Assembly (NCBI GenBank): GCA_963732695.1
Contig: CAVTAP010000016.1
Location: forward strand, 101,454 to 165,453
DNA: 64,000 nt
Source of the DNA: an uncultured Actinomycetota bacterium
Lineage (GTDB): Bacteria > Actinomycetota > Acidimicrobiia > Acidimicrobiales > SZUA-35
Direction: 5' to 3'
Shown: one piece after another, positions 26,709 through 42,739 of the stretch
Layout of the letters: every line of letters starts with the position of its first letter
How positions within the stretch are numbered: position 1 is the first letter of the stretch
The notes under the pieces: generated by a model
What the model was told of the DNA's origin: nothing
Database searches by the model: none
What the model saw: the letters and a program-made list of their open reading frames with translations, nothing else
Position numbers and translations under genes: made by a program

Positions 26709-27916
26709 ACCCGCCCGGGGTGCTGTTCGTCGACGACGACGAGGGCGTGCTGGCCGGACTGCGAACCTCGCTGCGCAAGCTCCGGCGGGAATACACCTTC
26801 TCCTTCGCCCGGGGTGGGGCCGAGGCGTTGGCGGTGCTGGAGGCCGAGCCCGTCCAGGTGGTCGTGACCGACATGCGGATGCCGGGGATGAACGGGGTGG
26901 AGCTGCTGCGCCAGGTGAAGGCCGGCCATCCCGAGATCGTCCGCATCGTGCTGTCGGGCGAGGCCGACCAGTCGCTGGTGATGCAAGCCATTCCTGTCAC
27001 CCACCGGTGGCTGACCAAGCCCTGCCCCCACGAGTACCTGGTCGATGCCCTGGCCCAGGGTGTGCGCCACCGGAACCTCCTGGCCGATCCCGACATCCTG
27101 TGCGTGATCGGCGGCATCGATGCCCTGCCGGCCACACCGCCCCTGTACCGGGATCTGGTTCGCCTGCTCGACGATCCCCGCACCAGCGTGGTGAAGGTGG
27201 CCGAGGTGATCGGCGCCGACGCCGCCGTGAGCGCCAAGCTGCTCCAGTGGGCCAACTCGGCCTTTGCCGGGGGGAGCCGCGTGGTCGACATCCGTAGTGC
27301 CGTGGTCCGCCTCGGGCTCAACATGGTGTCCTACCTCGTGTTGCGGGCCGAGATGGTCTGCCTGCTCGACGAAGAGCACGCCGTGCCCGGCATGGGGCTC
27401 AACGAGCTGCGCCGCCACGAGCGCAGCATCGGACTGCTGGCCGCCAGTCTCGCCGCCCCCGGGGAGTCGCTGGCGGCGGGCACGGCGGCGGGGCTGGCCT
27501 CCACCGGCCTGCTGCTGGAGGCCGGGCACCTGCCCGACCGGCTCGAGGCCTCGTACCGGTTGGCCGAGGAGGAGGGGTTGACCATCACGGCGGCCGAGCG
27601 CCGCCTGTTCGGGGTGACCCACTGCGAGCTCGGCGGGCATCTGCTCTCGGTGTGGGGGCTGCCGTCGCAGCTGGTGCTGGCGGTGGAGGGCTCCTACGAC
27701 CTGCCGGCTCCCGCCACCGGGCCGTTGACGGCGCCCGAGGCGGTGCGGGCGGCCCGGCTGGCTGTCCAGCGGCTGCCGTTCTATTCGTCGGTGGGGCCGC
27801 CCCACAAGGATCCGGTTGGCCCGCCACTGGAGCGCGCCGTGGAGCAGTGGTTGGGTGCCGCCGCCCTGACCGAGCGCCAGGCCGATCAGGACACGCTCCA
27901 GGAGGTCACGAGATGA
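26705..27916 (+). CDS. Response regulator: receiver domain + HDOD domain
   Basis: The GTG start overlaps the kinase stop (GTGA). REC reads VLFVDDDE...[13 protein letters not shown]...TKP. HDOD reads [47 protein letters not shown]. Confidence 0.85.
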
Positions 27917-29097
27917 CTGATGACGGGACGTCTCGGTTGCCCCGGTTGCTGTGTGTCGACGACGAGCCGGAGCTGCTGGCCAGCCTGAAGCTCAACCTGC
28001 GCAAGCGGTTCCAGGTGACGGTGGCCGAGTCGGGGCCGGCGGCCCTCGCCCTGTTCGCCGGGGCCCGGGACGGGAACCCGCCGTTCGATGTGGTGGTGTC
28101 GGACATGCGGATGCCGCGGATGTCGGGGGCCGAGCTGCTGGCCGAGCTGCGCCGACGGTTCCCCGACATGCCCCGACTGCTCCTGTCGGGCCAGGCCGAT
28201 CTCGACTCCACGATTTCGGCCATCAACGAGGCCCGGATCGCCCGGTTCCTGACCAAGCCCTGCGCCACCGACCACCTGATCGAGGCCATCGACGACGCCC
28301 TGGAGGTGGCCCGGCTGGCCCGGGCCGAGCGGGAACTGCTCGACCAGACGCTCAACGGCACCGTGGGGTTGCTGACCGAGGTGCTGGGTCTGATCAGCGT
28401 GGCCGCCTACGGGCGGACCCAGCGGGTGGAGACGCTGGTGACCCACCTGTCGGCGGCAGTGGGGCGGCCGGTGCCGTGGGACCTGGCGCTGGCGGCCAAG
28501 CTGTCCCAGCTCGGGTACGTCGTGGTGCACGACGAGCTGGAAGGGGGTGCCGGGGCCCATGCGGCCGAGGTGGCGGCCGGGCTCCTGGCCAACATTCCCC
28601 GGATGGGCCCGGTGGCCTGGATCGTCGGCCATCAGCACGACCCGGGCCCGGTGGGCGAGGGTGAGGATGTACCGCACTGGCCCAAGCGGGCGGTGAGCGC
28701 CGAGATCCTGCGGCTGGCGGTGGCGTTCGACGGGTTCACGTCGGCCGGGGCCTCGCCCCGCGACGCCCACGGGCTGATCGCCGAGTCGTCCACTCCCCCG
28801 CCCCGGATGCTGCTCGATGCTCTGTCGGCCCTGCACCTCGACGCCCTGGCTCTGGTGGAGGCGTCGGTGACCGTGCGCCAGCTGGCACCGGGAATGCATC
28901 TGGTGCAGGACGTGGTGGCCGCCAGCGGGCTCAAGCTGGCGGCGGCCGGGACCGTGCTCAACGGGGCCATGATCGGGCGGATCCGGTCGTTCACGGAGCG
29001 GGTGGGTGTACCCGAGCCGATCGAGGTCCGGGTGCCCGAGACCCGGATGCACCAGCTCGATGCTTCCGCCGCCGTGGCTGTCAGCCCGACGCGATAG
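27913..29097 (+). CDS. Response regulator: receiver domain + degenerate HD-GYP-like output domain
   Basis: The ATG overlaps the upstream stop (ATGA). REC reads LLCVDDEPE...[12 protein letters not shown]...TKP. The output region aligns to HD-GYP architecture, but the expected H...HD residues read ...YGRTQRV... and ...LSQLGY... Confidence 0.7.
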
Positions 29098-29111
29098 CGC
29101 GACGGGGCGGC

Positions 29112-29594
29112 TCAGATCCTGGTGTCGGTGGTGCGGAGCGTGGTGAGGGCGTAGACGGCGGTGACGTCGTCCTGGAGCATGCGCATGGCCACGAGGGAGG
29201 TGCGGCCCCGCTGGTTGACCACCTCCGCCTCCATCACGAAGCGGGGGCCGACGAGGGGCTCGAAATAGTCGATCCGCATGTTGATGGTGACGATGAAGTG
29301 GCGGGGCAGGCTGGGATCGGTGCGGTCTTCGCCGGCCCGGATGGCATGGAGCGACACGAAGTCGACGTAGGTGCCGGTGTAGCCGCCGAAGAGCATGCCC
29401 TGGGGGTTGCACAGGTGAGGAGGGAGGTGAGCGTCGATGCGGAGGAGGCCGGGGCGGTCCTCCAGCAGGGTCCAGTCGTAGGCCTCCAGATGGTCGGCCA
29501 CAGCGAAGCCCCGGTTGACCAGATGCCCTGGCGCCACCGGCTCCCATGGGGGCAGGCCCGGCACCGTCCCGCTGCCTTCCGTCGCCAACTCCAC
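29112..29594 (-). CDS. Hotdog-fold thioesterase (PaaI-like)
   Basis: 160 aa. The segment ...HLCNPQGMLFGGYTGTYVDFVS... is typical of PaaI/YbgC-type 4HBT thioesterases. Confidence 0.75.
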   Translation of the reverse strand: MELATEGSGTVPGLPPWEPVAPGHLVNRGFAVADHLEAYDWTLLEDRPGLLRIDAHLPPHLCNPQGMLFGGYTGTYVDFVSLHAIRAGEDRTDPSLPRHFIVTINMRIDYFEPLVGPRFVMEAEVVNQRGRTSLVAMRMLQDDVTAVYALTTLRTTDTRI

Positions 29595-29643
29595 CTCAGC
29601 CTCTCCTCCGTGGCGCTAACCTGATCGCCGAGACAAGCTAGCT

Positions 29644-29715
29644 GCGGGCGTAGTTCAAAGGCTAGAACCTCAGCCTTCCAAGCTGATGATGAGGGTTCGA
29701 TTCCCTTCGCCCGCT
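29644..29715 (+). tRNA. tRNA-Gly (anticodon TCC)
   Basis: Hand-folded cloverleaf: acceptor GCGGGCG/CGCCCGC, D stem GTTC/GAAC, anticodon stem TCAGC/GCTGA with loop CTTCCAA, T arm GAGGG-TTCGATT-CCCTT, discriminator T. Confidence 0.9.
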
Positions 29716-30044
29716 CGCACGTTTCTCCTGGTAGCAGCGTTGCATGGCAGATTTCTGCCTGGCTGAAGGCCGTTTCGTGCCTAGAACCAGCCTAGATCGG
29801 GCCTTGATTCTGGGGCACTACGGGCAACAACGGGCAGCACGGGTGGCCGAACACCATCAGCTTGAGTTTCTGATGGCGCTGACAAACGAGATGGCCGCTG
29901 AGGTGGCCGATTCTCATAGCCGGTCCGCCGTCGAGCCGTCGGTACCCAGAGGTCGCGGCCTACGCTGCGGGCTCGCCGGCGGCCGACCAGGGAACCGTTC
30001 GCCTTACAGCTCCATGGCGGCCCGATCATCGGTATACTGTCGGT

Positions 30045-30278
30045 ATGAAGCAGACCACGATCAAGCTGACGACCGAGACGCGAGATCGACTCCGCGATCT
30101 CGGCGGCGACACGTACGAGGACACGATCATCGAAGCCCTCGACCTTCTCGAAGAACGGGAGTTCTGGGCGCAGGCCGATCGGGCTGCGGCGTGGCGTGCC
30201 TCGCTCCCGGCCAACGAACGGGCCGAGATCGAGCACCGCGAAGCGGCGCTCGACGCGATGCTACACGGCTTACAGTGA
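30045..30278 (+). CDS. Antitoxin-like small protein (RHH-like N-terminus), copy 1
   Basis: 77 aa, MKQTTIKLTTETRDRLRDLGGDTYEDTIIEALDLLEE... It overlaps the downstream toxin-like ORF (GTGA). A paralog lies at 40480..40713. Confidence 0.65.
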   Translation: MKQTTIKLTTETRDRLRDLGGDTYEDTIIEALDLLEEREFWAQADRAAAWRASLPANERAEIEHREAALDAMLHGLQ

Positions 30279-30568
30279 CGCACTCCGGAGACGTTTTCCT
30301 CGCCGACGCCGGTCAGGAACAACGCATCCAGATCGTGGTGCTCACCAACAGTGAGTTCAACCGTCGCGCCGGTCGAGTGGTCGTCGCTCCACGCTTGGAC
30401 GGTCCTCCAGATGCAATCGCCAGCCCCTGGCGTGTACTCGACGGCGACAGTGTCTATGCCATCGATTTCATGCTGAGCCTGGATACGACTCGGCTGCTCG
30501 AGCTCGACGGTCACGTGTCAGAAGCCGCACTACGACGGATACGCCTCGTCATGCGTCGAATCACGTGA
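30275..30568 (+). CDS. MazF/PemK-like toxin, copy 1
   Basis: 97 aa from GTG: VTHSGDVFLADAGQEQRIQIVVLTNSEFNRRAGRVVVAPRL...YAIDFMLSLDTTRLLELDGHVSEAAL. The pattern resembles the MazF/CcdB-fold toxins (GD-V/I-[FW]-x-xD ... VV[LV][ST] ... V-V-P-L ... LD..RL). Confidence 0.6.
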   Translation: MTHSGDVFLADAGQEQRIQIVVLTNSEFNRRAGRVVVAPRLDGPPDAIASPWRVLDGDSVYAIDFMLSLDTTRLLELDGHVSEAALRRIRLVMRRIT

Positions 30569-30985
30569 CAGGCCGCGGCCACGACCCGGTATCCCTCTGA
30601 CCTACGGCAAGCCGGCACCGGTGGATCGCGAGCGGCCGGTCCAAGCGAGCAGCCTGTGCTCTGACCGCCGGCGGGACCGGTGTCACCGCGCCGCGTCGAG
30701 GATCCGGTAGGTGTAGCCCGGTTCGGAAAGGAAGCGTTGGCGGTGCCGGCGAAGCGGGCGACATCGGTGCCTGCGGCGACGATGGCGTAGAAGTAGGCGG
30801 CCCTCCCATCGGCCTTGGCCCGGAGGATCCTGCACGTTCCGCGATCCGTGCCTGCAACGGGCCTTGAACATCGGGGCGAAAGGGGCGCCAGAGGGCACTC
30901 CCAGCCAACGATACCTCCCGTCGATGCGGCCGCTGACCTGCGGAAACGCCGGTCCCAAGACAGCGGGACGATCCGTCCGCGTACT

Positions 30986-31029
30986 CCTTCCAAGCTGATG
31001 ATGAGGGTTCGATTCCCTTCGCCCGCTCG
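30986..31029 (+). repeat. Exact 44-bp direct copy of the 3' part of tRNA-Gly (att-like repeat 2)
   Basis: ccttccaagctgatgatgagggttcgattcccttcgcccgctcg is identical to 29674-29717, which runs from the anticodon loop to 2 nt past the tRNA end. Confidence 0.9.
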
Positions 31030-31222
31030 TCTGACCAGGTGAAACGTGTCCACTCGGTTCTGATCTTCAGGCGGATCAGGGCGTCGTGCCCCAACCGTGC
31101 CCCAAGGGCCCTGGGAGGCGACCCCTACCTGCGTCGATCGACATCGGCATTCCCCTCGGCGGGGCCAACTTCCAGTCGGGCCGGCAGCACATCGGTTGTA
31201 GCTGCGGGCAGCACCGGAGTAT

Positions 31223-32599
31223 GAGTCCCCTGGCGTGGTGGGAATCGGGTCCACCACGAGGTGAGCCACCGGCGTGATGCTCGGTGTGTACCGACCAAAG
31301 TGCACACCTAGGAGAACACGCCGATGGCTCTTGATGAGTCTGCCGTATCCGCTCTGCTCGACGCGCTCCGCGCCGGGGAGGGCACTGATCTTGTCCGCGA
31401 GTTGGCCCAGTGGGCCCTGCAGCAACTGATCGACCTGGAGGCTGCTGAGAAGATCGGCGCTGAGCGGTGGGAGCGGAGCCCGGAGCGGGTCACGCACCGC
31501 AACGGGACCCGCCCGAAGGTCCTGTCGACCAAGGCCGGGGACCTGGCGTTGGCGATCCCGAAGCTGCGCAAGGGCTCGTTCTTCCCGGAGCTCCTCGAGC
31601 CCCGCCGTCGGATCGACCAGGCCCTCTACGCCGTGGTGATGGAGGCCTACGTCAACGGGGTGTCGACCCGGTCGGTCGATGACCTGGTCGCCGCCATGGG
31701 GGTCGATACTGGGATCTCCAAGTCCGAGGTGAGCAGGATCTGCGCCCGTCTCGACGAACGCGTGACAGCGTTCCGCAACCGGACCCTGGGCCATGTCGTG
31801 TTCCCGTACGTGTACTTGGACGCGACCTACGTCAACGTCCGAGACGACGCCCTGGGCCAGGTCGTGTCCCGGGCCGTGGTGATCGCCACCGGCATCACCG
31901 CCAACGGCGACCGGGAGGTGTTGGGTGTCGACATTGGCGACTCCGAAGACGAGACGTTCTGGACCCGGTTCCTGCGGTCGCTACGCGACCGGGGCCTGGG
32001 CGGGGTCCGCCTCGTCATCTCCGACGCCCACGCCGGGCTCAAAGCATCGATCCGCAAGTGCTTCACTGGGTCGTCGTGGCAACGCTGCCGGGTCCACTTC
32101 GCCCGGAACCTGCTCGCCACCATCCCCAAGGCCCACAGCGAGTTCGTCGCTGCTGCGTTCCGGTCGATCTTCGCCCTCGGCACCCCAACCGAGGTCTCAA
32201 CCCGGTGGGACGAGGTCGAAGCCACCCTCGCCGAACGGTTCCCCAAGGCCGCAGCCCTGATGCGCGACGCCAAGACCGACGTGCTCGCCTTCACCGCGTT
32301 CCCGAGGGCCCACTGGCGCAAGATCTGGTCCAACAACCCGCTCGAACGCCTCAACAAGGAGGTCAAGCGGCGCTCCAACGTCGTCGGCATCTTCCCCAAC
32401 GACGCCGCCGCCATCCGCCTCATCGGAGCCGTCCTCGCCGACCAACACGACGAATGGGCCATCGCCCGCCGCTACCTCTCCGACACCTCCATGGCCGAAC
32501 TCAACGAACCGTGCGACACTAACCCCGACCAGCCAGCAATCGCCGGCTGAACACATCGAGCATCACACCTCGAATCCCACCACTCCACGGGCCTCTGTC
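31223..32599 (+). mobile_element. IS256-family insertion sequence
   Basis: Imperfect terminal inverted repeats: left gagtcccctggcgtggtgggaatcg, right reverse-complement gaggcccgtggagtggtgggattcg. It is flanked by the direct repeats gcaccggagtat (31211-31222) and gcaccggactat (32600-32611). Confidence 0.8.
31324..32550 (+). CDS. IS256-family (Mutator-type) transposase
   Basis: 408 aa, apparently intact. Family-typical segments include ...LIDLEAAEKIGAERWERSPERVTHRNGTRPKVLSTKAGDLALAIPKLRKGSFFPELLEPRRR..., ...VISDAHAGLK... and ...NPLERLNKEVKRR. Confidence 0.95.
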   Translation: MALDESAVSALLDALRAGEGTDLVRELAQWALQQLIDLEAAEKIGAERWERSPERVTHRNGTRPKVLSTKAGDLALAIPKLRKGSFFPELLEPRRRIDQALYAVVMEAYVNGVSTRSVDDLVAAMGVDTGISKSEVSRICARLDERVTAFRNRTLGHVVFPYVYLDATYVNVRDDALGQVVSRAVVIATGITANGDREVLGVDIGDSEDETFWTRFLRSLRDRGLGGVRLVISDAHAGLKASIRKCFTGSSWQRCRVHFARNLLATIPKAHSEFVAAAFRSIFALGTPTEVSTRWDEVEATLAERFPKAAALMRDAKTDVLAFTAFPRAHWRKIWSNNPLERLNKEVKRRSNVVGIFPNDAAAIRLIGAVLADQHDEWAIARRYLSDTSMAELNEPCDTNPDQPAIAG

Positions 32600-32642
32600 G
32601 CACCGGACTATCCTTACAGGTAGATCAAAGTAAGGAGTGACA

Positions 32643-32891
32643 ATGGAGATCGCTGCGAAACTCAGCTCGAAAGGACAACTCACCGTCCCGAAGGCAGTGC
32701 GCGACGCCCTTGGCCTCGCCGAGGGGGACGACGTCGTGTTCCGGGTGGAAGGCAGACGCGCCGTGCTTGCACGTACTACGGATTTCCTTTCATTGGCAGG
32801 AACGATCACGGTCCCTGCGAATCGTCGCAACGTCGCCTGGGATGACGTACTGCGACGGACTCGCACCACCAGGTCCAAGGACCGCCATTGA
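32643..32891 (+). CDS. vapB: AbrB/SpoVT-type antitoxin VapB
   Basis: MEIAAKLSSKGQLTVPKAVRDALGLAEGDDVVF is a SpoVT/AbrB swapped-hairpin motif. AAGGAG lies 5 nt upstream of the ATG. It overlaps vapC by 4 nt. Confidence 0.8.
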   Translation: MEIAAKLSSKGQLTVPKAVRDALGLAEGDDVVFRVEGRRAVLARTTDFLSLAGTITVPANRRNVAWDDVLRRTRTTRSKDRH

Positions 32892-33280
32892 GAGCCTTCG
32901 TCGACACGAACATTCTCGTCCGTCACCTCACAGGCGATCCACCCGACATGGCTCGCCGAGCGACCGAGTTTCTCGGCCGCGCCAACGAACTTCTTCTCGC
33001 CGATCTCGCGTTGGCCGAAACGATCTATGTGCTCGAGTCGTTCTACAAGGCGCCGAGAGCACAAGTCGCTGACGCTATGCGCTCACTGATAGCGATGGAG
33101 ACCATCGTGACCGTTGACCCAGCGCTGCTGCTTCGAGCAATCGAGGTGTTCGAGACCGACAGGATCGACTTCGCCGAGGCCTACCTCGTGGCCAACGCGG
33201 AAAGCAGCGGTGTCAACGCCATCGTCTCGTTCGACAAATCCATCGACCGGGTGACGACCATTCAGCGAATCGAGCCGTGA
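32888..33280 (+). CDS. vapC: PIN-domain toxin VapC
   Basis: 130 aa. MRAFVDTNILVRHL carries the first PIN acidic residue context, and ...DRIDFAEAYLVA..., ...SFDK... follow. Confidence 0.9.
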   Translation: MRAFVDTNILVRHLTGDPPDMARRATEFLGRANELLLADLALAETIYVLESFYKAPRAQVADAMRSLIAMETIVTVDPALLLRAIEVFETDRIDFAEAYLVANAESSGVNAIVSFDKSIDRVTTIQRIEP

Positions 33281-33452
33281 ACGTTTCCCGACGACGACCA
33301 CCCACCTCTCGCTGGACACGGCCGAGCCTGGCCGGGCGACCTGCTCGGATGCCGACGATCCCGGATGCCATAGGCGGTCGGAAATGTCATCAGCAGCGAG
33401 CCGGCGCGGGCTCCCTGGGTGTGGCCTCCGCCGGACCCGACTTGCGGTGTTC

Positions 33453-33466
33453 TCTATCTAGATAGA
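33453..33466. promoter_or_regulatory. Perfect 14-bp palindrome TCTATCTAGATAGA 10 nt upstream of padR (candidate operator)
   Basis: Seen directly in the sequence. It is an AT-rich palindrome in the padR 5' region. Confidence 0.5.
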
Positions 33467-33476
33467 TAATGAATCC

Positions 33477-33809
33477 ATGAGGCGAGCTCGCAAACCCACA
33501 CCGCAGACGATCGCGGTCTTGCTCGCGCTGGACCCATCTCAGTGGAGCCACGGCTATCGTCTGTGCCGGCAACTGGGCCTCAAGGCCGGCACGGTCTACC
33601 CGATCCTGATGCGCCTCGCGGAGCGGGGCCACGTCGAAACCTCGTGGGAGAATGACCCACCCTCCGGCCGCCCTGCACGCCACCTGTACCGGTTGTCGGG
33701 AGCGGGAGCCCGTTTGGCGGACGAGTTGCGAGCGGCGTCCGAGGCCGAGATCCCGCAGGTCCGTGGGGCGTCCGGCGCCATCCGGCCAACGTTCGGGGAG
33801 GCGTTCTGA
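33477..33809 (+). CDS. PadR-family transcriptional regulator
   Basis: 110 aa. ...LLALDPSQWSHGYRLCRQLGLKAGTVYPILMRLAERGHVETSWE...RHLYRLSGAG is a typical PadR winged helix. Confidence 0.9.
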   Translation: MRRARKPTPQTIAVLLALDPSQWSHGYRLCRQLGLKAGTVYPILMRLAERGHVETSWENDPPSGRPARHLYRLSGAGARLADELRAASEAEIPQVRGASGAIRPTFGEAF

Positions 33810-34624
33810 TGATCACCAGACGATCCGCCGTTTGGCTCGTCGGGACACTCCTCGTCGGCTCCGTATTCTCGCTCTTCATACCCCTCGTCGGCGGGGTCGC
33901 TTTCCTGCTCGCCGTGCCGCTTGCCGTCGTGGGACCGAGCCTGACCCGACAGCGACTGGCTGAACGCACCCAAGGTGATACGGCCGAGCGGCTCGTCGCG
34001 GCCGCCGTCACGCTCACCGGCACGCCGTCGCAACGAGACCACGCACAGGTGGACTGGGGTGCAGCGTTGACCGCCGAACTCACAACCATCACGGCCCCCA
34101 TGGAGCGGCGACGGTTCGCCCTCGGCGCGGCCGTCGCGCTGCTCGGCAGGCCACAATCACTCAAGTCGTTGCTCCTCGCAGCCGCCGTCGCTGTCCCGTT
34201 CGGGGCGGGCCTGCTGTGGGTCTCACGCGTCTTACTGGTGGACGGTGGACTTCTGTTGGCAACCTTTTTCGCTCCGATAGCGATGCTGTTCGCATTCGGC
34301 TTTCTGTGCGCCCGTTCCACCCGATCGCTGAGGTTTGGACTGGAGTCTGGTTTATTTGCCGCCCTCGGCACGCTCGCTGCGGTGGCGGTAGTCATCGGCG
34401 TGGAGGCAGCCCGCTGGCACGACATGGCTCCAGGCATCAGCGTTCTTGACGGTGACTACGTCGGCTTCGACTCGACCAGCGCAGCAGTCTGGGACGCGGT
34501 GCATCCGATCATCCTTCTCGTCCACCTCGCGTTCTGGGCGCCGTGGCCGGTCTTGGGCGCCGTCGCCGGAACACGCTCACAGGGACCGGTCAGTCCCCGA
34601 CCCCCAATCCCACGTAGCGGCTGA
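33809..34624 (+). CDS. Polytopic membrane protein co-transcribed with padR
   Basis: 271 aa with several hydrophobic helices. Its start overlaps the padR stop by 1 nt (TGATG). I recognise no family. Confidence 0.6.
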   Translation: MITRRSAVWLVGTLLVGSVFSLFIPLVGGVAFLLAVPLAVVGPSLTRQRLAERTQGDTAERLVAAAVTLTGTPSQRDHAQVDWGAALTAELTTITAPMERRRFALGAAVALLGRPQSLKSLLLAAAVAVPFGAGLLWVSRVLLVDGGLLLATFFAPIAMLFAFGFLCARSTRSLRFGLESGLFAALGTLAAVAVVIGVEAARWHDMAPGISVLDGDYVGFDSTSAAVWDAVHPIILLVHLAFWAPWPVLGAVAGTRSQGPVSPRPPIPRSG

Positions 34625-34875
34625 AGCCATTGAGGAGAGCGAGCCGAACATGGCCGGGTAACGACAAAGCCAGGTTGGACGACGCGACAGGGCTACCCCG
34701 AACCACCCCGACCGCCCACACCAGCTCCGCCCGAGCTTCGTTTGTCCACTCGCTCCGCCGCGCTCGGATCCCGAGCGCAAGAGTCGTGAGGAGATGCGGA
34801 TCGACGTGATCCGCCGGTTGCGGCGGCGGCGAACCCCTGGCGAACCTCTCGTCACAGATGAAACGGAGCCCGCCA

Positions 34876-35241
34876 ATGGCAACCACACTCACTCTCGCCC
34901 TGTCCGACGGCCGACAGACCCAGACCCAGGAGCTCTCAATCCCCGTCCTGCCCAGCTCGGTCGATATCTCGGGCACCGCCATGCCGACCGTCGACGACGT
35001 CGCCCGATTCGTCAAAGAGCAGCCTGACGCCGCCACCCAGCTGGTGATGGACTACAAGGCGGGTCGGATGGATGCGGTGCTGGCCCGGGCCAACGACCAC
35101 GGTCTCGTTGCGGCGCGATCCACCAGCGACCCACAGGCCGGAGCGGCGGCGGTAGTGATCCTGATCATCATTGCCATCATCATCATCCTGCTGTTCCCCA
35201 AGCCGGTGAAGGCCCCAACCAAGCCCCCAACGCAGAATTGA
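34876..35241 (+). CDS. Hypothetical tail-anchored membrane protein
   Basis: The ATG at 34876 is preceded by GGAG. The soluble domain is followed by the C-terminal helix AAAVVILIIIAIIIILLF and a Pro/Lys tail. I recognise no family. Confidence 0.4.
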   Translation: MATTLTLALSDGRQTQTQELSIPVLPSSVDISGTAMPTVDDVARFVKEQPDAATQLVMDYKAGRMDAVLARANDHGLVAARSTSDPQAGAAAVVILIIIAIIIILLFPKPVKAPTKPPTQN

Positions 35242-35434
35242 TCAGGCCGGGCGCCGGTGGGCACGCCCCCGGCGCCCGATCAGCAAGCAGCCAGCGGGAA
35301 TCACATGCGCTGACGAGCATTCCGAGGATGATCAGGCCAACAATATGGGGTAGAAGCTCATGGAATGAGCCCCCAATGCCTTGCAGCTTCGCTCGGTTCT
35401 TTGCTGGTCCCACCGATGTGAAGACATCATCCAT
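35183..35434 (-). CDS. Candidate anti-sigma factor (small single-pass membrane protein)
   Basis: 83 aa. Its ATG overlaps the stop of the ECF sigma gene by 8 nt (ATGGATGA). It has one hydrophobic helix, LLPHIVGLIILGMLVSA. The call rests on position only. Confidence 0.35.
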   Translation of the reverse strand: MDDVFTSVGPAKNRAKLQGIGGSFHELLPHIVGLIILGMLVSACDSRWLLADRAPGACPPAPGLINSALGAWLGPSPAWGTAG

Positions 35435-35936
35435 AGAGGTTTCTTGCAGGTTCGAGTAATGAGCGAAGCGAGGCCCGAGCGTGGTGAAGATGGTATTTCA
35501 CCGCTCCGGACGTGATGCCCATGTGGTGGGCGATCTCGGTGATGGGAAGGTCGTCGATGTAGAAGAGAACAGCGGCTTTTCGTTGCTGTGCCGGTAGTTG
35601 ATCGAGTAGCTCTAGCGCCCCGGTCGTCTCGGTGCTCGCGCTGGTCGGGTCGAGATGGCTGACACGGTCCGATGCGCTGTCTCGTATCTCGCGCTGCTGA
35701 CGGCGCCGAGCCGATCGGTGGACGTCGCGGCTCCGGTTGATGGCCACTCGTCTCACCCATGTGACTGGGTTATCGAGCCGTTGCACCATTCTCCATCGTG
35801 TCGCGGCCTTGACGAAGGCATCCTGGACACTGTCACGGGCCAGCTCGCGGTCGCCGGTCATCGCAGTCAACGACCGCACGAGCTGGTCATAGTGGGCGTG
35901 AAAGAAGAGTTCGAAATCGGCGTCGGGGAACGTCAC
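35427..35936 (-). CDS. ECF-type RNA polymerase sigma-70 family factor
   Basis: 169 aa. Region 2 reads ...ARDSVQDAFVKAATRW...VTWVRRVAINRSRDVHRS. Region 4 reads LPAQQRKAAVLFYIDDLPITEIAHHMGITSGAVKYHLHHARASL. Confidence 0.9.
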   Translation of the reverse strand: MTFPDADFELFFHAHYDQLVRSLTAMTGDRELARDSVQDAFVKAATRWRMVQRLDNPVTWVRRVAINRSRDVHRSARRRQQREIRDSASDRVSHLDPTSASTETTGALELLDQLPAQQRKAAVLFYIDDLPITEIAHHMGITSGAVKYHLHHARASLRSLLEPARNLYG

Positions 35937-36036
35937 AAGTGAATCTCTCGCTGCCCCCGGCCGCAGTCACGACCTCGGATGAGGATGGTCCATCCCGCCG
36001 CCTGAGGCAAGTGACTAGCGTCACAGTCGGAGCGCT

Positions 36037-36300
36037 TCAAGCGGACTGGCGCTGCAGTGCCGGTACTGGGCCGAGCGCAAGTCGAGCCACCTTATGGGGG
36101 GGCCAGACGGCTGGTTGCCGCACAGGTAAAGTGGGTGGCGAGTGGTGGATTTGTCCCTTCAGGCGGGCCAGGGTCTCATCGAGATCAGCGATCTGATGTT
36201 CGAGTCTGGTCAGACCCTCGTAGTTCATACGTTGCGCCCACCGCATCTGAACCCATGACGAAAGCGGAGATCGAATCCCAAACTGATCGTTCCACATCAT
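36037..36300 (-). CDS. Small coiled-coil protein, copy 2 of the family at 6127..6369
   Basis: 87 aa, MMWNDQFGIRSPLSSWVQMRWAQRMNYEGLTRLEHQIADLDETLARLKGQI... The SD-like AAAGGGGG lies 4-5 nt upstream of the ATG. It sits directly upstream of and co-directional with the ECF sigma gene. Confidence 0.45.
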   Translation of the reverse strand: MMWNDQFGIRSPLSSWVQMRWAQRMNYEGLTRLEHQIADLDETLARLKGQIHHSPPTLPVRQPAVWPPHKVARLALGPVPALQRQSA

Positions 36301-36310
36301 CTGCCCCCTT

Positions 36311-36342
36311 TGACGTAAGACCGGGAGAATATACCTACGTCA
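36311..36342 (-). promoter_or_regulatory. Inverted repeat TGACGTA-N18-TACGTCA enclosing a TATATT -10-like hexamer, upstream of the small ORF and sigma gene
   Basis: Plus strand tgacgta (36311-17) and tacgtca (36336-42). The minus-strand TATATT lies at 36328-33, about 28-33 nt upstream of the ATG at 36300. Confidence 0.35.
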
Positions 36343-36551
36343 CGTCACCGACGGCCGGCTCGGTTTGCCAGCAGATTTATTCCGGAGATCAGGTTCACTA
36401 TTAGTCGACGTTTGGGGGCCCCGGGTGGCCCGGCCTGTCAAGGGGTGACTGAGTGGTAATGGTTGGGCCGTGGGCGACGATCCGACGCACGGTGAGGCCG
36501 AGATCACCAGTCGCCCACCATGCTGCCTCCACCGCATCAAGCACCGGAACC

Positions 36552-38094
36552 TGTCAAGGGTGGTGAGACAGTTTCTTGCTATTCGGTTGTGATGAGTGCT
36601 TCGGGTGTTGGTTCGTTGATCCAGGCGATGGTGGGGAGCTTGGGTGGGGTGGGTGGCCGGTGCCGGAATCGGGTGGGGTTGGCGGTGTAGGCGGCGTTGA
36701 GGGTGGTTTGGCGTTGGGCTCTGACCTCGGTGGCGGTGCCGTAGTGGACCGAGGCTGGGGTGTGGAGCCCGATCCCGGTGTGGCGGTGGACGTGGTTGTA
36801 GTGGTCGAAGAACGCGGCGCAGAACGTGCGGGCGTCTTGGATGCTGCCGAACCGGGTGGGGAACGCCGGGCAGTATTTGAGGGTCTTGAAGTTCGCCTCG
36901 GAGTACGGGTTGTCGTTGGAGACATGGGGGCGGCTGTGGCTGCGGGCGACGCCGAGATCGACGAGGAGCTGGGCCACCGGTTTGGAGGTCATCGACGTGC
37001 CCCGGTCAGCGTGCAAGGTCAGCTGGTCCCGGGTCGATGCCCTGGCTGGCGAGGGCCTGGTTGATGAATGCTTTGGCCAGCTCACCGGTCTCGGCCGGCG
37101 GCGACCGTCCAGGCGATGACGTAGCGGGAGAAGATGTCGATGATGACGAACAACTCGTAGTAGACGCCCCGCTGGGGGCCTTGGAGCTTGGTGATGTCCC
37201 ATGACCACACCTGGTTCGGGCGGCGGGCGACGAGCTCGGGCCGCTTGCGGGTCGGGTGGGTTCGTTGCCGGCGCCGTTCCCGGTTCTCACCCGTGACGGC
37301 CAACAACCGGTACATGGTCGAGATCGAACACAGGTAGATCCCGTCATCCAGCAGCTGGGCCCACACCTGGGCTGGGGCCAGGTCGCAGTACTCCTTGGAG
37401 CGCAACACCTCGAGGACCCGTTGGCGTTCCGGCTCGGTCAGCTTGTTCGCCGGTGTCCGGCGGCGGCACGGGCGGGCCGAGGACCGGTGACCGGCGACGG
37501 CGGTACACGCGTGGCCCGAGACGCCCCCAGCAGCCGACAGGCGCTGGATGGTCGAGGTCACCGCCTCCAACGCCCCGAGGTGCTCGGTGATCACGGCTTC
37601 GACTTCGTCTCGGGCGCCGCGCTCTCGGAGAGCTGCTCCAAGAGCGCATGCACTTTTCCCGTGATCTCCAACGCCGTCTTGGTCCTCGCCAACTCGGCCT
37701 CCAACTGCGCGTTCCGGCGCCGAAGCTTGTCCAACTCGACCGACTCCGGCCGACCGGCGGGGCTTACCCTTCGGAGCCAGCCCCTCGCGGGCCCCGGCCT
37801 CCCGGGCCTTGCGCCACTCGGCCAGATGCGACGAGTACAGGCCCTCCCGGCGCAGCAACGCCCCCCGCTCCGTCGAACCGACCGGCAGCCCGTCATACTC
37901 GGCGAGGATCCGCTCTTTGTACTCCACGGTGAAGGTCCGCCGGCGGGGCCGTTCGGCTGGGTCACGCTCGTCCACCCCATCATCATGGGCGCGCCCGAGC
38001 AGCGATGCAGATGTCATAGTCATCAGGTCTACGTGATCCTGTCTCGCCCCAGAGGGATGATCAGCTACTCCGACTGTCTCACCTCACCCTGACA
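36552..38094 (-). mobile_element. IS3-family insertion sequence (degenerate)
   Basis: Terminal inverted repeats tgtcaagggtggtgagacagt (36552-72) and actgtctcacctcaccctgaca (38073-94). A further related end-like sequence, cctgtcaaggggtgactgag, lies at 36433. Confidence 0.8.
36579..38023 (-). pseudogene. IS3-family transposase OrfAB carrying extra frameshifts
   Basis: The OrfA N-terminus (RRTFTVEYKERILAEYD...) and the OrfA leucine zipper (VELDKLRRRNAQLEAELARTKTALEI) lie in different frames. The OrfB catalytic core is split over three frames (...WSWDITKL...YYELFVIIDIFSRYVIAW / ETGELAKAFINQAL / LTLHADRGTSMTSKP...SHSRPHVSNDNPYSEA). That is at least three disruptions beyond the normal programmed -1 shift. 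Confidence 0.8.
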
Positions 38095-38444
38095 GACAGG
38101 GCACTGCGTCCCGCTCGGGGATGGCATGACACCCCGGTCACAGTAGAGCCATCACTGCCAGACCGGTCACCAAGTGACTGTTTCATACCGACCGGCTGTT
38201 TGCTGCGGGCCCCCGATAGTGAGGCCTGTCCGCACCGCGGGGCCCTCGGGTAGATCCCCTTGGGAGGAGGCCATGCTCGCCGGACACGTGGGGCAGGTCC
38301 GAGAGCACCTTTGCCTCCCCCCAAGGGGCAACGGCTACATGGTGGTGGATCGCTGTGCGGGCAGACCCCACCTAGGAGACTGCTGAGCAATCGGGGATGA
38401 CGGTGCTCGTCGTTTCGGGTCGGCGGATCGAAAAGAATGGGGGG

Positions 38445-39995
38445 ATGCAAGGTTCGTCTCGCCCGGATCGTGAGCTGCTCGACGCTGCGGCGCTGTGTGG
38501 CCATCTGCTGGGGCAGGGCTCGGTGCACGCGTTGCTGGCCGGAGCACCGCCGGACGCCTGTTCCCCGATGAGATGTTCGCTGACCTGTTCCCCTCCGGTC
38601 GGGGCCGCCCGTCGGTGCCCAGCTGATGTGATCGCAACGGTGATGGTCCTGCAGGCGTTGGAGGGCAAGTCCGACCGGGAGGCAGTCCGAGCGCTGGAAC
38701 GCGACATCGCCTGGAAGGCCGCGGCCGGGTCTGGCGTTGACCGACGAGGCGTTCCACCCGACGGTGCTGACCTTGTGGCGCAACAAGCTGCGGGCGTCGG
38801 AGGACCCGCAGCGGATCTTCAACGCGGTGCGGGCGGTGGTGGACGAGACCGGGGTGATCACCGGCAGCAACCGGCGGGTGCTGGACTCGACGGTGCTGGA
38901 CGACGCGGTGCAGCGCCAGGACACGATCACGATGCTGGTCACCCAGATCCGCCGGGTCCGCAAGCTCATCCCCGAGCTGGCCTCGGTGTGGGTCCGGGAG
39001 CACAACCTGGAAGGCGGGCCGGCCGCCGTGTCGACTGGGACGACCCCGGCGACATCGACCGGCTCGTCACCGAACTGGTCGACGACGCCAACGAGCTGGT
39101 CTGGGCGGCCGAGGACCTCCAGGCCGACGGGCTCGTGCTGTCAGCAGGTGCAGGCCGACGCGGTGGCGTTGTTGGCGCTCGTGGCCGGCCAGGACGTCGA
39201 GCCGGGTGACGGGCCGGGGCAGTGGCGCATCGCCCGGGGCACCGCCCCCGACCGGGTCGTGTCGACCGTCGATCCCGGAGTCGCGTCACGTCCACAAGAC
39301 CCAGCACTCCTATCGGGACGGCTACAAGGCCCACGTCGCGGTCGAGCCCGACACCGGGCCTGATCACCGACGTCGAGCTGACCGCCGGCAACGTCGGCGA
39401 CGCCGAAGCCGCCCCCGAGCTGATCGAGGACGAACCCGAAGGCACTGAGTCGTGCTCGGCGACTCCGCCTACGGCGCCGGCGAGTTCCGCGCCCATCTCG
39501 CAGGAGCGGAACATGCAGGCGGTGATCAAGCCTCCGCCGCTGCGAGCCGCGGTCGAAGGCGGGTTCACGCTCGACGACTTCGACATCGACGCGACCGCCG
39601 GCACCGTCTACCTGCCCCGCCGGCGTGAGCGTCACCATCACCCCGGTCAGGGGCCGCACGGTTCGCTACCAACTGCACGGGCTCTGCCCGTGCGCTCGCG
39701 GTGCACCACCGCCAGAGGCGGCAGGGTCATCGTGCTGCACCCCCACCACGCCCTGCTCGTCCGCGGCCCGGGCCTTCGCCGGCACCGAGGAGTTCGCCGA
39801 CCCCTACCGCCAGCACCGGCCCGATGGTCGAGCGCAGCATCGCCTGGCTCGTCCGCGGGGCCAACCGCCGGCTCCGCTACCGAGGCATCGAACGCAACCG
39901 GCTCTGGCTCGCCCACCGCGCCGCTGCCGTCGAACCTCAACCGGCTCATCAAGCTCGGCCTCACCCACACGCCCACCAGCTGGACCATCGCCTGA
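38445..39995 (+). pseudogene. IS1182/IS5-like DDE transposase remnant with multiple frameshifts
   Basis: Homologous segments are scattered over three frames: MQGSSRPDRELLDAAALCGHLL..., ...ADVIATVMVLQALEGKSDREAVRALERDIAWKAAAG, DEAFHPTVLTLWRNKLRASEDPQRIFNAVRAVVDETGVI..., ...HKTQHSYRDGYKAHVAVEPDTG, ...RSIAWLVRGANRRLRYRGIERNRLWLAHRAAAV. Confidence 0.75.
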
Positions 39996-40264
39996 CCGCC
40001 ACCTCCCGGCGGCGGCCACCCGGCCGGCAACCGCCGATGATCAATCACCACACGAGACCCAGACCACCAGCCGCCCACCGCGCCCTCTTAGCGCACAACA
40101 AGCGCCTTGCTCAGCAGCCTCCTAGCCGAAGGCTCCCCTAAGGAGCCCACTAGTTATCTACACGCCGCCGCCCCCTAGGAAGGATTGGCCAGCCGAGGGT
40201 TCTCCGACGGTAGCCCGACACGTGAACTACTCACCTCGGCTGGTTCTTTCACCCGGCCCAGTCG

Positions 40265-40306
40265 CCTCCCAAGCTGACGATGAGGGTTCGATTCCCTTCG
40301 CCGCTC
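40265..40306 (+). repeat. Degenerate third copy of the tRNA-Gly 3' segment (att-like repeat 3)
   Basis: cctcccaagctgacgatgagggttcgattcccttcgccgctcc. Against the 44-bp repeat it has two transitions, a 1-nt deletion and one terminal mismatch. Confidence 0.8.
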
Positions 40307-40479
40307 CAAACCCGACCAGCTGAAACTGACCCGAACACCCGGCTCGGGCGGTTACGGCACGTGACCCACTGGGGTTCGGATCGCCGGGCAGCTCGCGGTT
40401 GCCGTCTCCACCGAGGAACGCTGCTTTCGAACTCTGTCCTGAACCGCATCGACAAGCAGCCCCCGGCTCGACCGTCGGC

Positions 40480-40713
40480 ATGAAGCAGACCACGATCAAG
40501 CTGACGACCGAGACGCGAGATCGACTCCGCGATCTCGGCGGCGACACCTACGAGGACACGATCATCGAAGCCCTCGACCTTCTCGAAGAAGGGGAATTCT
40601 GGGCGCGAGCCGATAGGGCCGCATCGTGGCGTGCGTCGCTTCCCGCCGACGAACGGGCCGAGATCGAGCGCCGCGAGGCGGGACTCGATGCGATGCTGCA
40701 CGGCTTACGGTGA
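40480..40713 (+). CDS. Antitoxin-like small protein, copy 2
   Basis: 77 aa, MKQTTIKLTTETRDRLRDLGGDTYEDTIIEALDLLEEGEFWARADRAASWRASLPADERAEIERREAGLDAMLHGLR. It differs from copy 1 at only a handful of residues. Confidence 0.65.
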   Translation: MKQTTIKLTTETRDRLRDLGGDTYEDTIIEALDLLEEGEFWARADRAASWRASLPADERAEIERREAGLDAMLHGLR

Positions 40714-41011
40714 TGCACTCCGACGTTTTCCTCGCCGAGGCCGGTCAGCAACACAACGCATCCAGGTAGTGGTGCTCACCGACAGCGAGTTCAACCGCCG
40801 CGCCGGTCGAGTGGTCGTCGCCCCACGCTTGGACGGTCCTCCAGATGCGATCGCCAGCCCCTGGCGCGTACTCGATGGCGACAGTGTCGACGCCGTCGAT
40901 TTCATGCTGAGCCTGGATTCGGCCCGGCTGCGCGAGCTCAACGGTCACGTGTCAGAAACCGCACAACGACGGATACGCCTCGTCCCTGGATCATCGACGC
41001 CTGTCGGATGA
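40710..41011 (+). pseudogene. MazF/PemK-like toxin, copy 2, frameshifted near the 5' end
   Basis: From GTG at 40710 the frame stops after 19 codons (…CAG CAA CAC AAC GCA TCC AGG TAG). The rest of the homology (RIQVVVLTDSEFNRRAGRVVVAPRLDGPPDAIASPWRVLDGDSV...) lies in another frame. Relative to copy 1 there is a 3-nt deletion and a 2-nt insertion. Confidence 0.55.
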
Positions 41012-41066
41012 CCGTTCCGGCGGCCGGTATCGTCGCTGGTTCGCACGCCGTGACTGGAGGCAGCTG

Positions 41067-41471
41067 ATGAGCGGACCGGTCCTGTACCTCACCTTCGCCG
41101 GGAACGCCGGGGAGGCGCTCGGCTTCTACGCCGGGGTGTTCGGCGGGGACCTCCAGCTCAACACGTACGCCGACTTCTCCCGCTCCGACGGCCCCGCCGA
41201 CGCCATCGCCCACGGCGTGCTCAGCAACGGGCCGGTGGCCCTGTTCGCCTCCGATGCCGCCCCCGGCGAGCCCTCGGTGCGGATGGAGGGCGTCCTCCTC
41301 TCCCTTCTCGGCACGGCCGAGCCGGCCGTCCTCCACCGGTGGTTCGACCAGCTGGCCGACGGCGGCACCGTGCTCGACCCCCTCGCTCCCAAGCCCTGGG
41401 GCGCCTCGGACGGCCAGGTGGTCGACCGGTACGGCCTGCGTTGGCTCGTCGGCTACGAGCCCGGCGGGTAG
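41067..41471 (+). CDS. VOC-superfamily protein (PhnB/YjdN-like)
   Basis: 134 aa. LYLTFAGNAGEALGFYAGVFGG...WGASDGQVVDRYGLRWLV. Confidence 0.75.
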   Translation: MSGPVLYLTFAGNAGEALGFYAGVFGGDLQLNTYADFSRSDGPADAIAHGVLSNGPVALFASDAAPGEPSVRMEGVLLSLLGTAEPAVLHRWFDQLADGGTVLDPLAPKPWGASDGQVVDRYGLRWLVGYEPGG

Positions 41472-41543
41472 CCCGCAACCCCGCCGCTCCCCCACCCCGT
41501 CGACGCGAGGTTCGGCCCCGCCCGGCCGGGGAAGGCTCGGCAG

Positions 41544-42524
41544 ATGACGTCGCCCACTGCCACTTCCACCCCGTTGGCCCGAGCGGCCGACCTGGCGCTG
41601 GAGGCGTCGATCGTCGGGAGCTACACCGCCGTTGGCTTCCGGGCCCGCAACGCCCTCGGCCACTGGCCGCCACCGGTTGGCACCGATCTGCGGGGCCGCA
41701 CATTCCTGGTGACCGGCGCCAGCCGCGGCATCGGCCACGAAACCGCCTCCATGCTCCTCGCCGCCGGGGCCGCCATCCGCTCGGTCTCCCAGTCGGCTGA
41801 CCGGGCCGACGAGGCCACCCGACGCCTACAGGCCCGCCATACCGACGGTGACGTCGCCTTCGTTGTGGCCGATCTCACGGTCGCTGACGATCTCGCCCGG
41901 GTGGCCGCCGAGCTCCGGCGGGAGCTCACCCACCTCGACGGCATCGCCCATTGCGCCGGCGCCTTCTACTCCGACCTCACCCGCACGGGCGACGGGATCG
42001 AGGCCAACGTCGCCCTCGGTGTGGTGGCGCCGCACCGCCTCAACCGCCTCCTGGCCGACCAGCTGGGTGCCGCCCCCGACCCCCGGGTGGCGATCGTCGC
42101 CTCCAGCGGCGCCTACCTGCACCGCCTCAGCATCGGTGCGCTCGACCCCGACGATGCCAGCCGCTACCGCCCGCTCGCCGCCTACGCCCTCACCAAACGG
42201 GCCCAGATCGTGCTCACCCACGCCTGGGCCCAGCGCCGGCGCACCATCGCCTTCGATGCCATGGCCCCCGGCTGGTCCGACACCGAGCTGCTCCGCCAGG
42301 GCCTCCCGCGCTTCCGGCGGATGCTCCGCCCGGCCCTGCGCTCGGCCGCCCAGGGCGCCGACACTCTCGCCTGGCTCCTGGCCCGCCCCGACCCCCACCG
42401 GACCACCGACCGCTTCTGGCACGACCGCCGCCCCCGCTTGGAGCACCGGTTCCCCTGGACCCTGGGCGGTGACGGGCCCGACGAGCTGTGGGCCTGGTGC
42501 GAGCAACGGAGCCCGACCGGGTGA
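41544..42524 (+). CDS. Short-chain dehydrogenase/reductase (SDR)
   Basis: 326 aa. Cofactor motif FLVTGASRGIG, and YALTKRA carrying the catalytic Y..K. Confidence 0.85.
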   Translation: MTSPTATSTPLARAADLALEASIVGSYTAVGFRARNALGHWPPPVGTDLRGRTFLVTGASRGIGHETASMLLAAGAAIRSVSQSADRADEATRRLQARHTDGDVAFVVADLTVADDLARVAAELRRELTHLDGIAHCAGAFYSDLTRTGDGIEANVALGVVAPHRLNRLLADQLGAAPDPRVAIVASSGAYLHRLSIGALDPDDASRYRPLAAYALTKRAQIVLTHAWAQRRRTIAFDAMAPGWSDTELLRQGLPRFRRMLRPALRSAAQGADTLAWLLARPDPHRTTDRFWHDRRPRLEHRFPWTLGGDGPDELWAWCEQRSPTG

Positions 42525-42739
42525 GACCTCAACCGTGGGCTCCTCACCCCCGGTTTCTCGTTCCACATCGGCGAAACAGCCCTCGCCCGGCCAAAACCAG
42601 CCTCTGTTACCCAGTCTGTGCAACCAGGAACATGCGACGGCATACTTGGGTGTAATGACCTGGCAACGGGGTGCCCCCGGGGCATAAGCCCTGAAGGTAC
42701 TCTGAGCAGTTCAAGTGCGGAACGGGCGGAGGTGGCGAA

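Follow-up and report, generated by a model that had tools for sequence, protein, structure and literature searches.

Mycobacteriophage L5 and the pSAM2- and SLP1-type elements of actinomycetes integrate at the 3' ends of tRNA genes, with cores of ~43-60 bp. Here we analyze a 10.5-kb island at a tRNA-Gly(TCC) gene of an uncultured Actinomycetota bacterium, contained in a stretch of 64,000 nucleotides (contig CAVTAP010000016.1, positions 101,454 to 165,453) that we refer to as the window and number from its first letter. A scan of GTDB species representatives with the thioesterase adjoining tRNA-Gly places the host in Acidimicrobiales. In islands described by Islander, a regenerated tRNA gene and a displaced 3' fragment mark the two ends, and the anticodon-centered crossover class is the commonest (PMC4383910; Williams 2002 as cited there). 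Cis-mobilizable elements (CIMEs) and their tandem accretion were described first for the ICESt1-related elements of Streptococcus thermophilus and also for pathogenicity islands of Streptomyces (PMC5704250). According to the accretion model, a CIME is the decayed form of an element that had integrated; a further element of the same specificity can then insert at one of its attachment (att) sites, and the resulting composites can move as a whole (PMC5704250). Toxin-antitoxin (TA) systems can stabilize integrated elements, as with the TA system of Salmonella genomic island 1 (PMC5704250, its ref. 78).

The original prediction for this locus, made from the letters of the window, had proposed serial site-specific integration into the tRNA gene. 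Comparison with related loci indicates that positions 29718-40264 are very probably a decayed composite, a CIME-like tandem island inserted site-specifically into the segment from the anticodon loop to the 3' end of tRNA-Gly(TCC). It would consist of two att-bounded units, unit A (29718-30985) with a TA islet and unit B (31030-40264) with vapBC, padR plus a membrane protein gene, and an extracytoplasmic function (ECF) sigma factor gene, neither of them with a recombinase gene.

Copies of the tRNA-Gly 3' end and identification of the native end

Orthologous loci, designated below by L numbers, were collected from three sources: the GTDB thioesterase scan, a glyoxalase protein search and a thioesterase cluster. 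L045-L052, L058, L061 and L062 stem from the SRR13076xxx and SRR14271xxx runs. No match came from looking up the exact proteins of the window's glyoxalase and antitoxin genes, or that of P0150, a cluster member with 100% identity to the window's thioesterase. The features that define the boundaries of the island are as follows.

29644-29716, plus strand: tRNA-Gly(TCC), the regenerated target (attL), called by ARAGORN and scoring 69.4 bits with the Rfam tRNA model; it ends ...CGCCCGCTCG, without an encoded CCA
29674-29717, plus strand: core copy 1, which starts in the anticodon loop and extends two bases beyond the acceptor stem
30986-31029, plus strand: core copy 2 (repeat 2), identical to copy 1 at 44 of 44 positions and ending TCG
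40265-40308, plus strand: core copy 3 (repeat 3), the displaced native tRNA 3' end, which keeps TCCA; 84% identical, with two substitutions and a 1-nt deletion
40309-40479, unstranded: native tRNA trailer, resident DNA homologous to the DNA directly after the tRNA or tRNA fragment in L058 and L056

All three core copies are in direct orientation, and the 44-nt block begins at CCTTCCAA, which is the anticodon loop. The core sequence of the tRNA repeats is CCTTCCAAGCTGATGATGAGGGTTCGATTCCCTTCGCCCGCTCG; a 24-nt core gave three matches in the 64 kb, compared to 0.00 expected from 100 shuffles, and an exact search of viral contigs with a 41-nt core returned one match only, within an ordinary Tyr-Gly tRNA cluster. 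The identical 44-bp repeat at 30986-31029 and the degenerate copy beginning at 40265, on which the original prediction was built, are thus confirmed, with the third copy extending over 40265-40308. No RNA family other than tRNA-Gly was found in an Rfam scan of 22-42 kb. A 93-nt 'tRNA-Arg(CCG)' called by ARAGORN at 22789-22881 is a probable false positive, as it has no Rfam tRNA match at gathering score and resembles high-GC coding DNA.

The tRNA-Gly genes of L001, L002, L044, L058 and L061 end ...CGCCCGCTCCA, with the CCA encoded. In the window, the tRNA-Gly gene and repeat 2 both end ...CGCCCGCTCG (TCG) and repeat 3 ends ...CGCC-GCTCCA, followed by a trailer with 81-83% identity over ~110 nt to the trailers of L058 and L056. 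Because repeat 3 has a TCCA end like that of the relatives and is followed by the homologous trailer, we identify it, by its sequence and context, as the displaced original 3' end of the tRNA. The 3' end of the working tRNA-Gly (TCG, no CCA) is, on the same comparison, the one supplied by the incoming DNA, as integration into a tRNA gene (tDNA) predicts (principle: PMC4383910).

tRNA-Pro(TGG), at 5562-5638, likewise lacks an encoded CCA and ends ...CCCGACCG; therefore, post-transcriptional CCA addition must operate in this organism. CCA is not generally templated in the genome, and tRNA-Gly should tolerate having lost its encoded CCA.

An empty site in the closest relative

The genes that frame the island are conserved in the clade.

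29112-29594, minus strand: PaaI/4HBT thioesterase (Pfam 4HBT), left core flank, adjoining tRNA-Gly in L001, L002, L057, L058, L059 and L061
41067-41471, plus strand: Glyoxalase/VOC protein, right core flank

Among the relatives found, the closest is L058, a 10-kb Logan contig with 97% protein identity in the thioesterase and 91-93% nucleotide identity in the flanks. Its gene order is unbroken: response regulators, thioesterase, tRNA-Gly, trailer, ~1 kb of small open reading frames (ORFs), a 5'-truncated toxin copy, glyoxalase, SDR, a Bmp/OmpA protein and a CoA-transferase. Three alignments connect it with the window. L058rc 1-3209 aligns to window 26536-29716, ending at the tRNA 3' end; L058rc 3166-3276 aligns to window 40264-40374, which is repeat 3 and the trailer; and L058rc 4347-9710 aligns unbroken to window 40756-46140 at 91.4%, starting inside the second toxin gene of the window. 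The first two alignments overlap in L058 by exactly the 44-nt core, the classical relation of attB to attL and attR. Because the L058 site is uninterrupted and these two alignments overlap by the core, the alignment establishes the 10.5 kb of window 29718-40264 as inserted DNA.

In L057, L059 and L061, tRNA-Gly is likewise followed directly by the same native trailer. None of the fetched tRNA-Gly loci of relatives contains any part of 31.0-40.2 kb, the sole exception being the padR module, which recurs in L060 in an unrelated context. The identity of the flanks to L058 has no step at tRNA-Gly. The proposed check of base composition pointed in the same direction, with a GC content of 61-69% over 29.5-38.5 kb compared to 71-75% in the flanks. 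The content of the locus differs between all relatives examined, which marks tRNA-Gly(TCC) as a hotspot.

Absence of recombination, transfer, phage and defense genes

No integrase, recombinase or resolvase was detected at the sensitivity of profile hidden Markov model searches with Pfam, either in the called ORFs or in 130 further fragments from 29700-41070. These fragments comprised the stop-to-stop stretches of at least 45 amino acids (aa) in all six frames of that region which had not been scanned before, and their sole Pfam match was a chance one, to Docking-domain (E = 0.009). Genes belonging to integrative conjugative elements (ICEs), actinomycete ICEs or integrative mobilizable elements (IMEs), i.e. 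an integrase with a relaxase or an FtsK-like TraB with Rep, were found in no frame of the island. There were no phage structural, packaging or replication genes either; the only PHROGs families matched by the cargo were those of a TA antitoxin and a sigma factor, together with two whose function is unknown. The statement that the island holds no recombinase, excisionase, conjugation, replication or phage gene thus stands after the six-frame Pfam and PHROGs searches.

The defense-system and profile scans proposed earlier gave no functional lead for the cargo ORFs. PADLOC reported no match to a defense system; a weak Csa3-like match to the helix-turn-helix region of the ECF sigma factor (E 4.8e-4) was disregarded. 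No relic of an ICE or IME backbone was found in the island. The right third of unit B, where such genes could have been lost, is taken up by dead IS3 and IS1182 insertion sequence (IS) copies, and a 126-bp arm separates these from repeat 3. If unit B ever had an integrase, we infer that this third would be the likeliest place of its loss.

The TA islet of unit A and the resident TA remnant

The features of unit A, together with a second TA copy downstream of the island, are given below.

29718-30026, unstranded: left arm of unit A, 309 bp, with no homologue in the tRNA trailers of relatives and no coding signal found
30045-30278, plus strand: antitoxin 1, 77 aa, with a weak DUF7557 match; its stop overlaps the start of toxin 1 (GTGA)
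30275-30568, plus strand: toxin 1, 97 aa, MazF/PemK-like, intact (PemK_toxin, 21.3 bits)
30689-30831, minus strand: remains of an XPB/ERCC3-type helicase gene (its last ~48 codons), frameshifted, recognized via the full-length gene in L041
30944-30985, unstranded: right arm of unit A, 42 bp, unique
40480-40985, plus strand: resident TA remnant (TA2), with antitoxin 2 intact (40480-40713) and toxin 2 frameshifted and 3'-truncated

The two genes of the first pair (TA1, 30045-30568), a candidate for the MazEF/PemIK class of type II TA systems, overlap by 4 nt. With the PemK_toxin model, whose cut-off is 23.1, toxin 1 reaches 21.3 bits and its homologue in L041 40.8 bits. The pair recurs at 40480-40985 with 91-92% nucleotide identity; here, a frameshift disrupts the toxin gene after about codon 14, and other sequence takes the place of its 3' end at 40985. 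The spacers that separate TA1 and TA2 from their respective tRNA pieces are not homologous.

In L001, L045-L050, L056, L057, L058 and L059, the interval from the tRNA (or a displaced piece of it) to the glyoxalase gene contains a TA copy or remnant. At the toxin-glyoxalase junction, the window and L058 share two derived features, the loss of TA-downstream DNA and a common insertion upstream of the glyoxalase gene. Because the relatives keep a TA pair at the tRNA-glyoxalase locus and the derived junction features are common to the window and L058, comparison of these loci identifies TA2 as an old resident of the tRNA locus across the clade and not as island cargo. The second TA copy that had been noted after repeat 3 is therefore present, but, being resident in L001, L045 and L056-L059, it does not belong to the island event.

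In four relatives (L056 358-860, L058 5760-6640, and near the tRNA in L057 and L059), the antitoxin and the 5' end of the toxin are replaced by another pair of small ORFs, of 67 aa and 100-154 aa, which has no family match and in L056 is fused to the 3' half of the toxin. This pair may be another TA-like cassette swapping into the same spot.

Unit A resembles the resident islets of relatives in its interior. The 375 bp after TA1 are collinear with the TA-downstream DNA of L045 and partly with that of L001 and L056, and the homology ends at 30943. The helicase relic is partly kept beside the TA pair in L001 and L056, and adjacent TA-downstream DNA is kept in L045. The ~400 bp that had been described as non-coding-looking DNA next to the TA pair of this segment thus include the helicase relic, and the segment is a foreign copy of the TA islet, closest to the versions in L045 and L036. 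TA1 is 97/94% identical (antitoxin/toxin part) to its counterpart in L036 and 94.4% to that in L045, compared to 91.6% for the window's own TA2. Because TA1 is nearer to L036 and L045 than to TA2, unit A (1.3 kb) is, to judge by these identities, a horizontally acquired second copy of the clade's TA islet and not a recent internal duplication.

In L045, the TA islet is bracketed by two tRNA fragments, a decayed one of the anticodon type upstream and a 26-nt fragment from the T-stem to CCA, GGGTTCGATTCCCaTCGCCCGCTCCA, before the glyoxalase leader. The latter lies at L045 2572-2597, and its CCCAT variant equals the T-arm of the L061 tRNA-Gly. The GGGTTCGATTCCCaTCGCCCGCTCCA fragment suggests a much older integration of a different crossover class, and the TA islet is probably a remnant of a much older integration. 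Homologues of the TA pair from metagenomes (L036-L043) have neither tRNA-Gly nor the core nearby, which indicates that the TA family is not generally linked to att sites. Candidate arm-type integrase sites, GCCTAGA-like repeats that the left arm of unit A was suspected to share with the tRNA flank of L002, were rejected, as the local alignment score of 18 was not significant compared to 16.2 +/- 2.1 for shuffles.

Unit B and its cargo

The gene list given earlier for this segment (IS256, vapBC, padR with a membrane protein gene, a tail-anchored ORF, an ECF sigma module, a dead IS3 and a dead IS1182-like element) was recovered as stated with Pfam and NCBIfam.

31030-31218, unstranded: left arm of unit B; the first ~20 nt and further patches resemble the clade's native tRNA trailer
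31219-32599, plus strand: intact IS256-family element with imperfect terminal inverted repeats; transposase at 31324-32550 (474 bits Pfam, 352 bits NCBIfam)
32637-33280, plus strand: vapBC, with an AbrB/MazE-type antitoxin at 32637-32891 (MazE_antitoxin, 42 bits) and a PIN toxin at 32888-33280 (PIN, 53 bits); the genes overlap
33378-34771, plus strand: module of padR (33477-33809) and a gene for a 271-aa multi-pass membrane protein (33809-34624)
34858-35241, plus strand: 127-aa ORF, tail-anchored, with one C-terminal hydrophobic segment and no family match
35183-35936, minus strand: genes for a SigE-type ECF sigma factor (35427-35936) and, downstream, for an 83-aa protein (35183-35434) that has one hydrophobic segment
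36579-38023, minus strand: dead IS3-family transposase, interrupted in its rve domain (the two parts match model positions 2-252 and 273-369)
38359-40138, plus strand: decayed IS1182-like element; its terminal inverted repeats (32 nt) are imperfect, and its transposase is fragmented, with weak matches
40139-40264, unstranded: right arm of unit B, 126 bp, between the IS1182 inverted repeat and core copy 3

An 8-bp target duplication, GCACCGGA, lies on either side of IS256 (31211-31218 and 32600-32607), and the left arm of unit B reads straight into vapBC once IS256 is subtracted. IS256 is a simple insertion, probably recent, by which no neighboring DNA was deleted. The idea that IS256 lacked a target duplication and had removed an integrase gene by deletion is ruled out by GCACCGGA. 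No second copy of IS256 was found in the window or in any fetched locus. The vapBC pair has the order that defines the VapBC class, an AbrB/MazE-type antitoxin followed by a PIN toxin, and the 83-aa protein, given the position of its gene, may be the anti-sigma factor.

The 1.4-kb padR-membrane module (33378-34771) is 98.2% identical to L060 9569-10962. L060 (ENA ERZ25039524 contig_2163) is a low-GC, otherwise unrelated contig full of small hypothetical ORFs, and the sequence identity points to a recent exchange of this module. For the membrane protein, a crude Kyte-Doolittle scan gave ~5 hydropathy peaks. Its family is well conserved and has 229 relatives at E < 1e-5 in actinobacterial metagenomes and no Pfam or NCBIfam model; among the matches listed, the relatives are mostly ~60-70% identical, and the source name is always 'hypothetical protein'. 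In both contexts examined, the window and L060, its gene follows the PadR gene. A 271-aa ORF upstream of the repeat in L045 is no homologue of the membrane protein and forms part of an ABC transporter pair.

The cargo at 33.4-36.3 kb had been named as the likeliest place in the window for an undescribed function, a suggestion that we do not uphold, as PADLOC, PHROGs, Pfam and NCBIfam returned regulators only. The padR-membrane pair is a widespread uncharacterized actinobacterial module, and unit B has no sign of a new system.

Outside the island, the region upstream of tRNA-Gly (window ~23000-29100, homologous to L057 10652-15024) holds a conserved signaling cluster, in which an H-NOX (HNOB) protein and a PAS histidine kinase are accompanied by two response regulators, one with HDOD and the other with an HD domain. 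The cluster is a probable NO/O2-sensing pathway in Acidimicrobiales.

Reconstruction of the island and alternative explanations

The firm elements of the picture are the insertion, its boundaries, the native tRNA end, the absence of a recombinase and the mosaic cargo. We read the locus as a product of recombination of the tyrosine-integrase type, given an identity block that starts in the anticodon loop, direct repeats, a regenerated tRNA, displacement of the native end and an empty site in a relative. Integration would have rebuilt the tRNA with the element-supplied TCG end, and the native end, its trailer and the resident TA pair would have been displaced 10.5 kb downstream, where they are now decaying. 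Unit A keeps 44 of 44 att positions at both ends, and unit B keeps 44 of 44 at its left end and 84% at its right. Unit B most likely came first, because the outer repeat 3 is decayed (three changes) and the IS3 and IS1182 copies are dead, and unit A most likely came later, because repeat 2 is unchanged and TA1 is intact. After its own arrival, unit B would have been invaded by IS256 (intact) and by IS3 and IS1182 (both dead). Unit A may have been brought in or left behind by a helper element of the same site specificity that has since gone, and the TA modules (MazF-like and VapBC) would survive through resisting loss.

Several points weigh against this reconstruction. No integrase of the required specificity was found in the window or at the tRNA-Gly site of any relative, and the type of enzyme is read from the geometry of the junctions. 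The contrast in age is only suggestive: it amounts to 0 versus 3 changes in 44 nt, and at the rate of repeat 3, the chance of zero changes is ~5% by a Poisson estimate. Thus, from the proposal of serial integration, the insertion and the att-bounded units hold, given the L058 empty site and the native CCA end, but the different ages of the events are no more than suggested. The left arm of unit B resembles the native trailer and the interior of unit A resembles the relatives' resident islet, and these features agree as well with DNA imported from the tRNA-Gly locus of a relative, perhaps in the form of a single composite or through homologous recombination, as with two separate integrations. 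All relatives are contigs of metagenome-assembled genomes or metagenomes, and site occupancy is known for alleles, not for isolates. L001, which has the tRNA, the TA pair and the glyoxalase gene, was rejected as a clean empty site, as a run of ~107 N (L001 9057-9163) marks a place where a repeat or an island could sit. This run lies between the TA islet and the glyoxalase side and may be a scaffold gap or a masked stretch.

The alternative that survives best, which we regard as possible if on balance doubtful, is a single acquisition, in which units A and B formed a pre-assembled composite, a CIME joined to another CIME or to an element. In a related donor, this composite would have left the chromosome by recombination of its outermost att sites, to enter the present tRNA gene in one step. 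It would account for the same non-native TCG end of the tRNA and repeat 2, identical at 44 of 44 positions, and for the resemblance of both the unit A interior and the unit B left arm to a relative's tRNA-Gly locus; transfer of a whole CIME-ICE tandem is documented (PMC5704250). However, an unselected internal repeat 2 should then have decayed like repeat 3, yet it is perfect, and unit B carries dead IS copies whereas unit A is pristine. Furthermore, no donor with units A and B was present among the fetched loci.

Continued mobility of the units is quite unlikely; in this reading, the TA-only islet of unit A, and unit B too perhaps, would be non-autonomous elements that an integrase encoded elsewhere in the genome excises and moves. 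The perfect 44-nt direct repeats and intact TA pair of unit A would be expected in this case, and a similar TA islet is bracketed by tRNA fragments in L045, with a 95% identical TA cassette occurring in L036 in a different upstream context. L036, however, has no tRNA fragment within 530 bp upstream, the L045 brackets are decayed and of unequal type, and the arms of unit A are seen in one genome only. Another reading, unlikely as it is, would make the ~1-kb TA islet, with its MazF-like TA pair, helicase relic and tRNA-Gly fragment brackets, a minimal non-autonomous integrative element that spreads among related Acidimicrobiales via borrowed tRNA-Gly-specific integrases and, once the helpers have been lost, persists by addiction. 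If so, the window would hold two generations of the element, the resident, decaying TA2 and the newly arrived, intact TA1.

We consider it very unlikely that this genome saw no site-specific step and received the occupied locus from a related strain through homologous recombination, for which the tRNA with the genes upstream of it would have provided homology at one end and the trailer, TA or glyoxalase region at the other. The hotspot character of the locus, different in each relative, is in keeping with such an event, as are the closer similarity of TA1 to other lineages than to TA2 and the 98% identity of the padR module to a foreign contig. Allelic replacement, however, should not leave a foreign TA islet together with the resident junction of repeat 3, trailer, TA2 and glyoxalase; moreover, that junction has derived features in common with L058, and the flanks have no identity step at the tRNA.

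Finally, a segmental duplication of tRNA-Gly and the TA pair in this genome, with ordinary conserved chromosome as the interior, would explain why a tRNA piece and the same TA pair occur twice in the same orientation, but it is barely credible: the empty site of L058 contradicts it and the interior is also missing from L057, L059 and L001, the repeated part is limited to the 3' 44 nt of the tRNA with unrelated spacers, the divergence between TA1 and TA2 (8.4%) exceeds that between TA1 and the copies in other organisms, and the interior has low GC and three IS elements. The two outcomes named in advance as fatal to the island, a duplication of tRNA and TA with the same interior in relatives and an interior made of core genome, were thus not observed; the comparison favors insertion, and the interior is absent from the relatives' loci.

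Comparison with known systems

Having weighed these alternatives, we return to the decayed composite island. It reveals no new system, its cargo being regulators and small membrane proteins of widespread uncharacterized families. It does provide a well-bounded example of how a tRNA-linked island ages in an uncultured actinobacterial order, where the integrase is lost, IS elements enter and modules are swapped, and where TA pairs and att repeats remain. Pipelines that require an integrase would miss such arrays, and comparison with an empty site recovers them.

As in tDNA islands found by Islander, there is an intact tRNA, direct 3' fragments start from the anticodon loop (class 'A'; the T-stem is the other canonical crossover position), a relative has the empty site, the GC content deviates and the units are arrayed in tandem at one tDNA. 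Unlike in those islands, no unit has its own integrase, which Islander requires, and the array would be filtered out by that pipeline. The locus shares with CIMEs the att-bounded units without integration and transfer genes, placed in tandem at a tRNA 3' end, and the composite can be explained by integration into a resident att site; it differs in the lack of an ICE or IME backbone relic and of a helper, in its uncultured Acidimicrobiales host and in a unit A that contains little beyond a TA pair.

The actinobacterial host, the tRNA target (tRNA-Gly for L5) and an identity block from the anticodon loop to the 3' end are shared with L5, pSAM2 and SLP1, which, unlike this island, encode Int, Xis and phage or conjugation/replication genes. 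As in TA-stabilized elements, there are TA pairs of type II, VapBC and the putative MazF/PemK-like one, and no other genes of the island units are so well preserved; in contrast to them, the stabilizing role is here a putative one, and the resident TA2 is itself decaying, with a frameshifted toxin. Taken together, this is an ordinary decayed island of known type with two instructive details, a native end marked by its CCA and a horizontally re-acquired TA islet.

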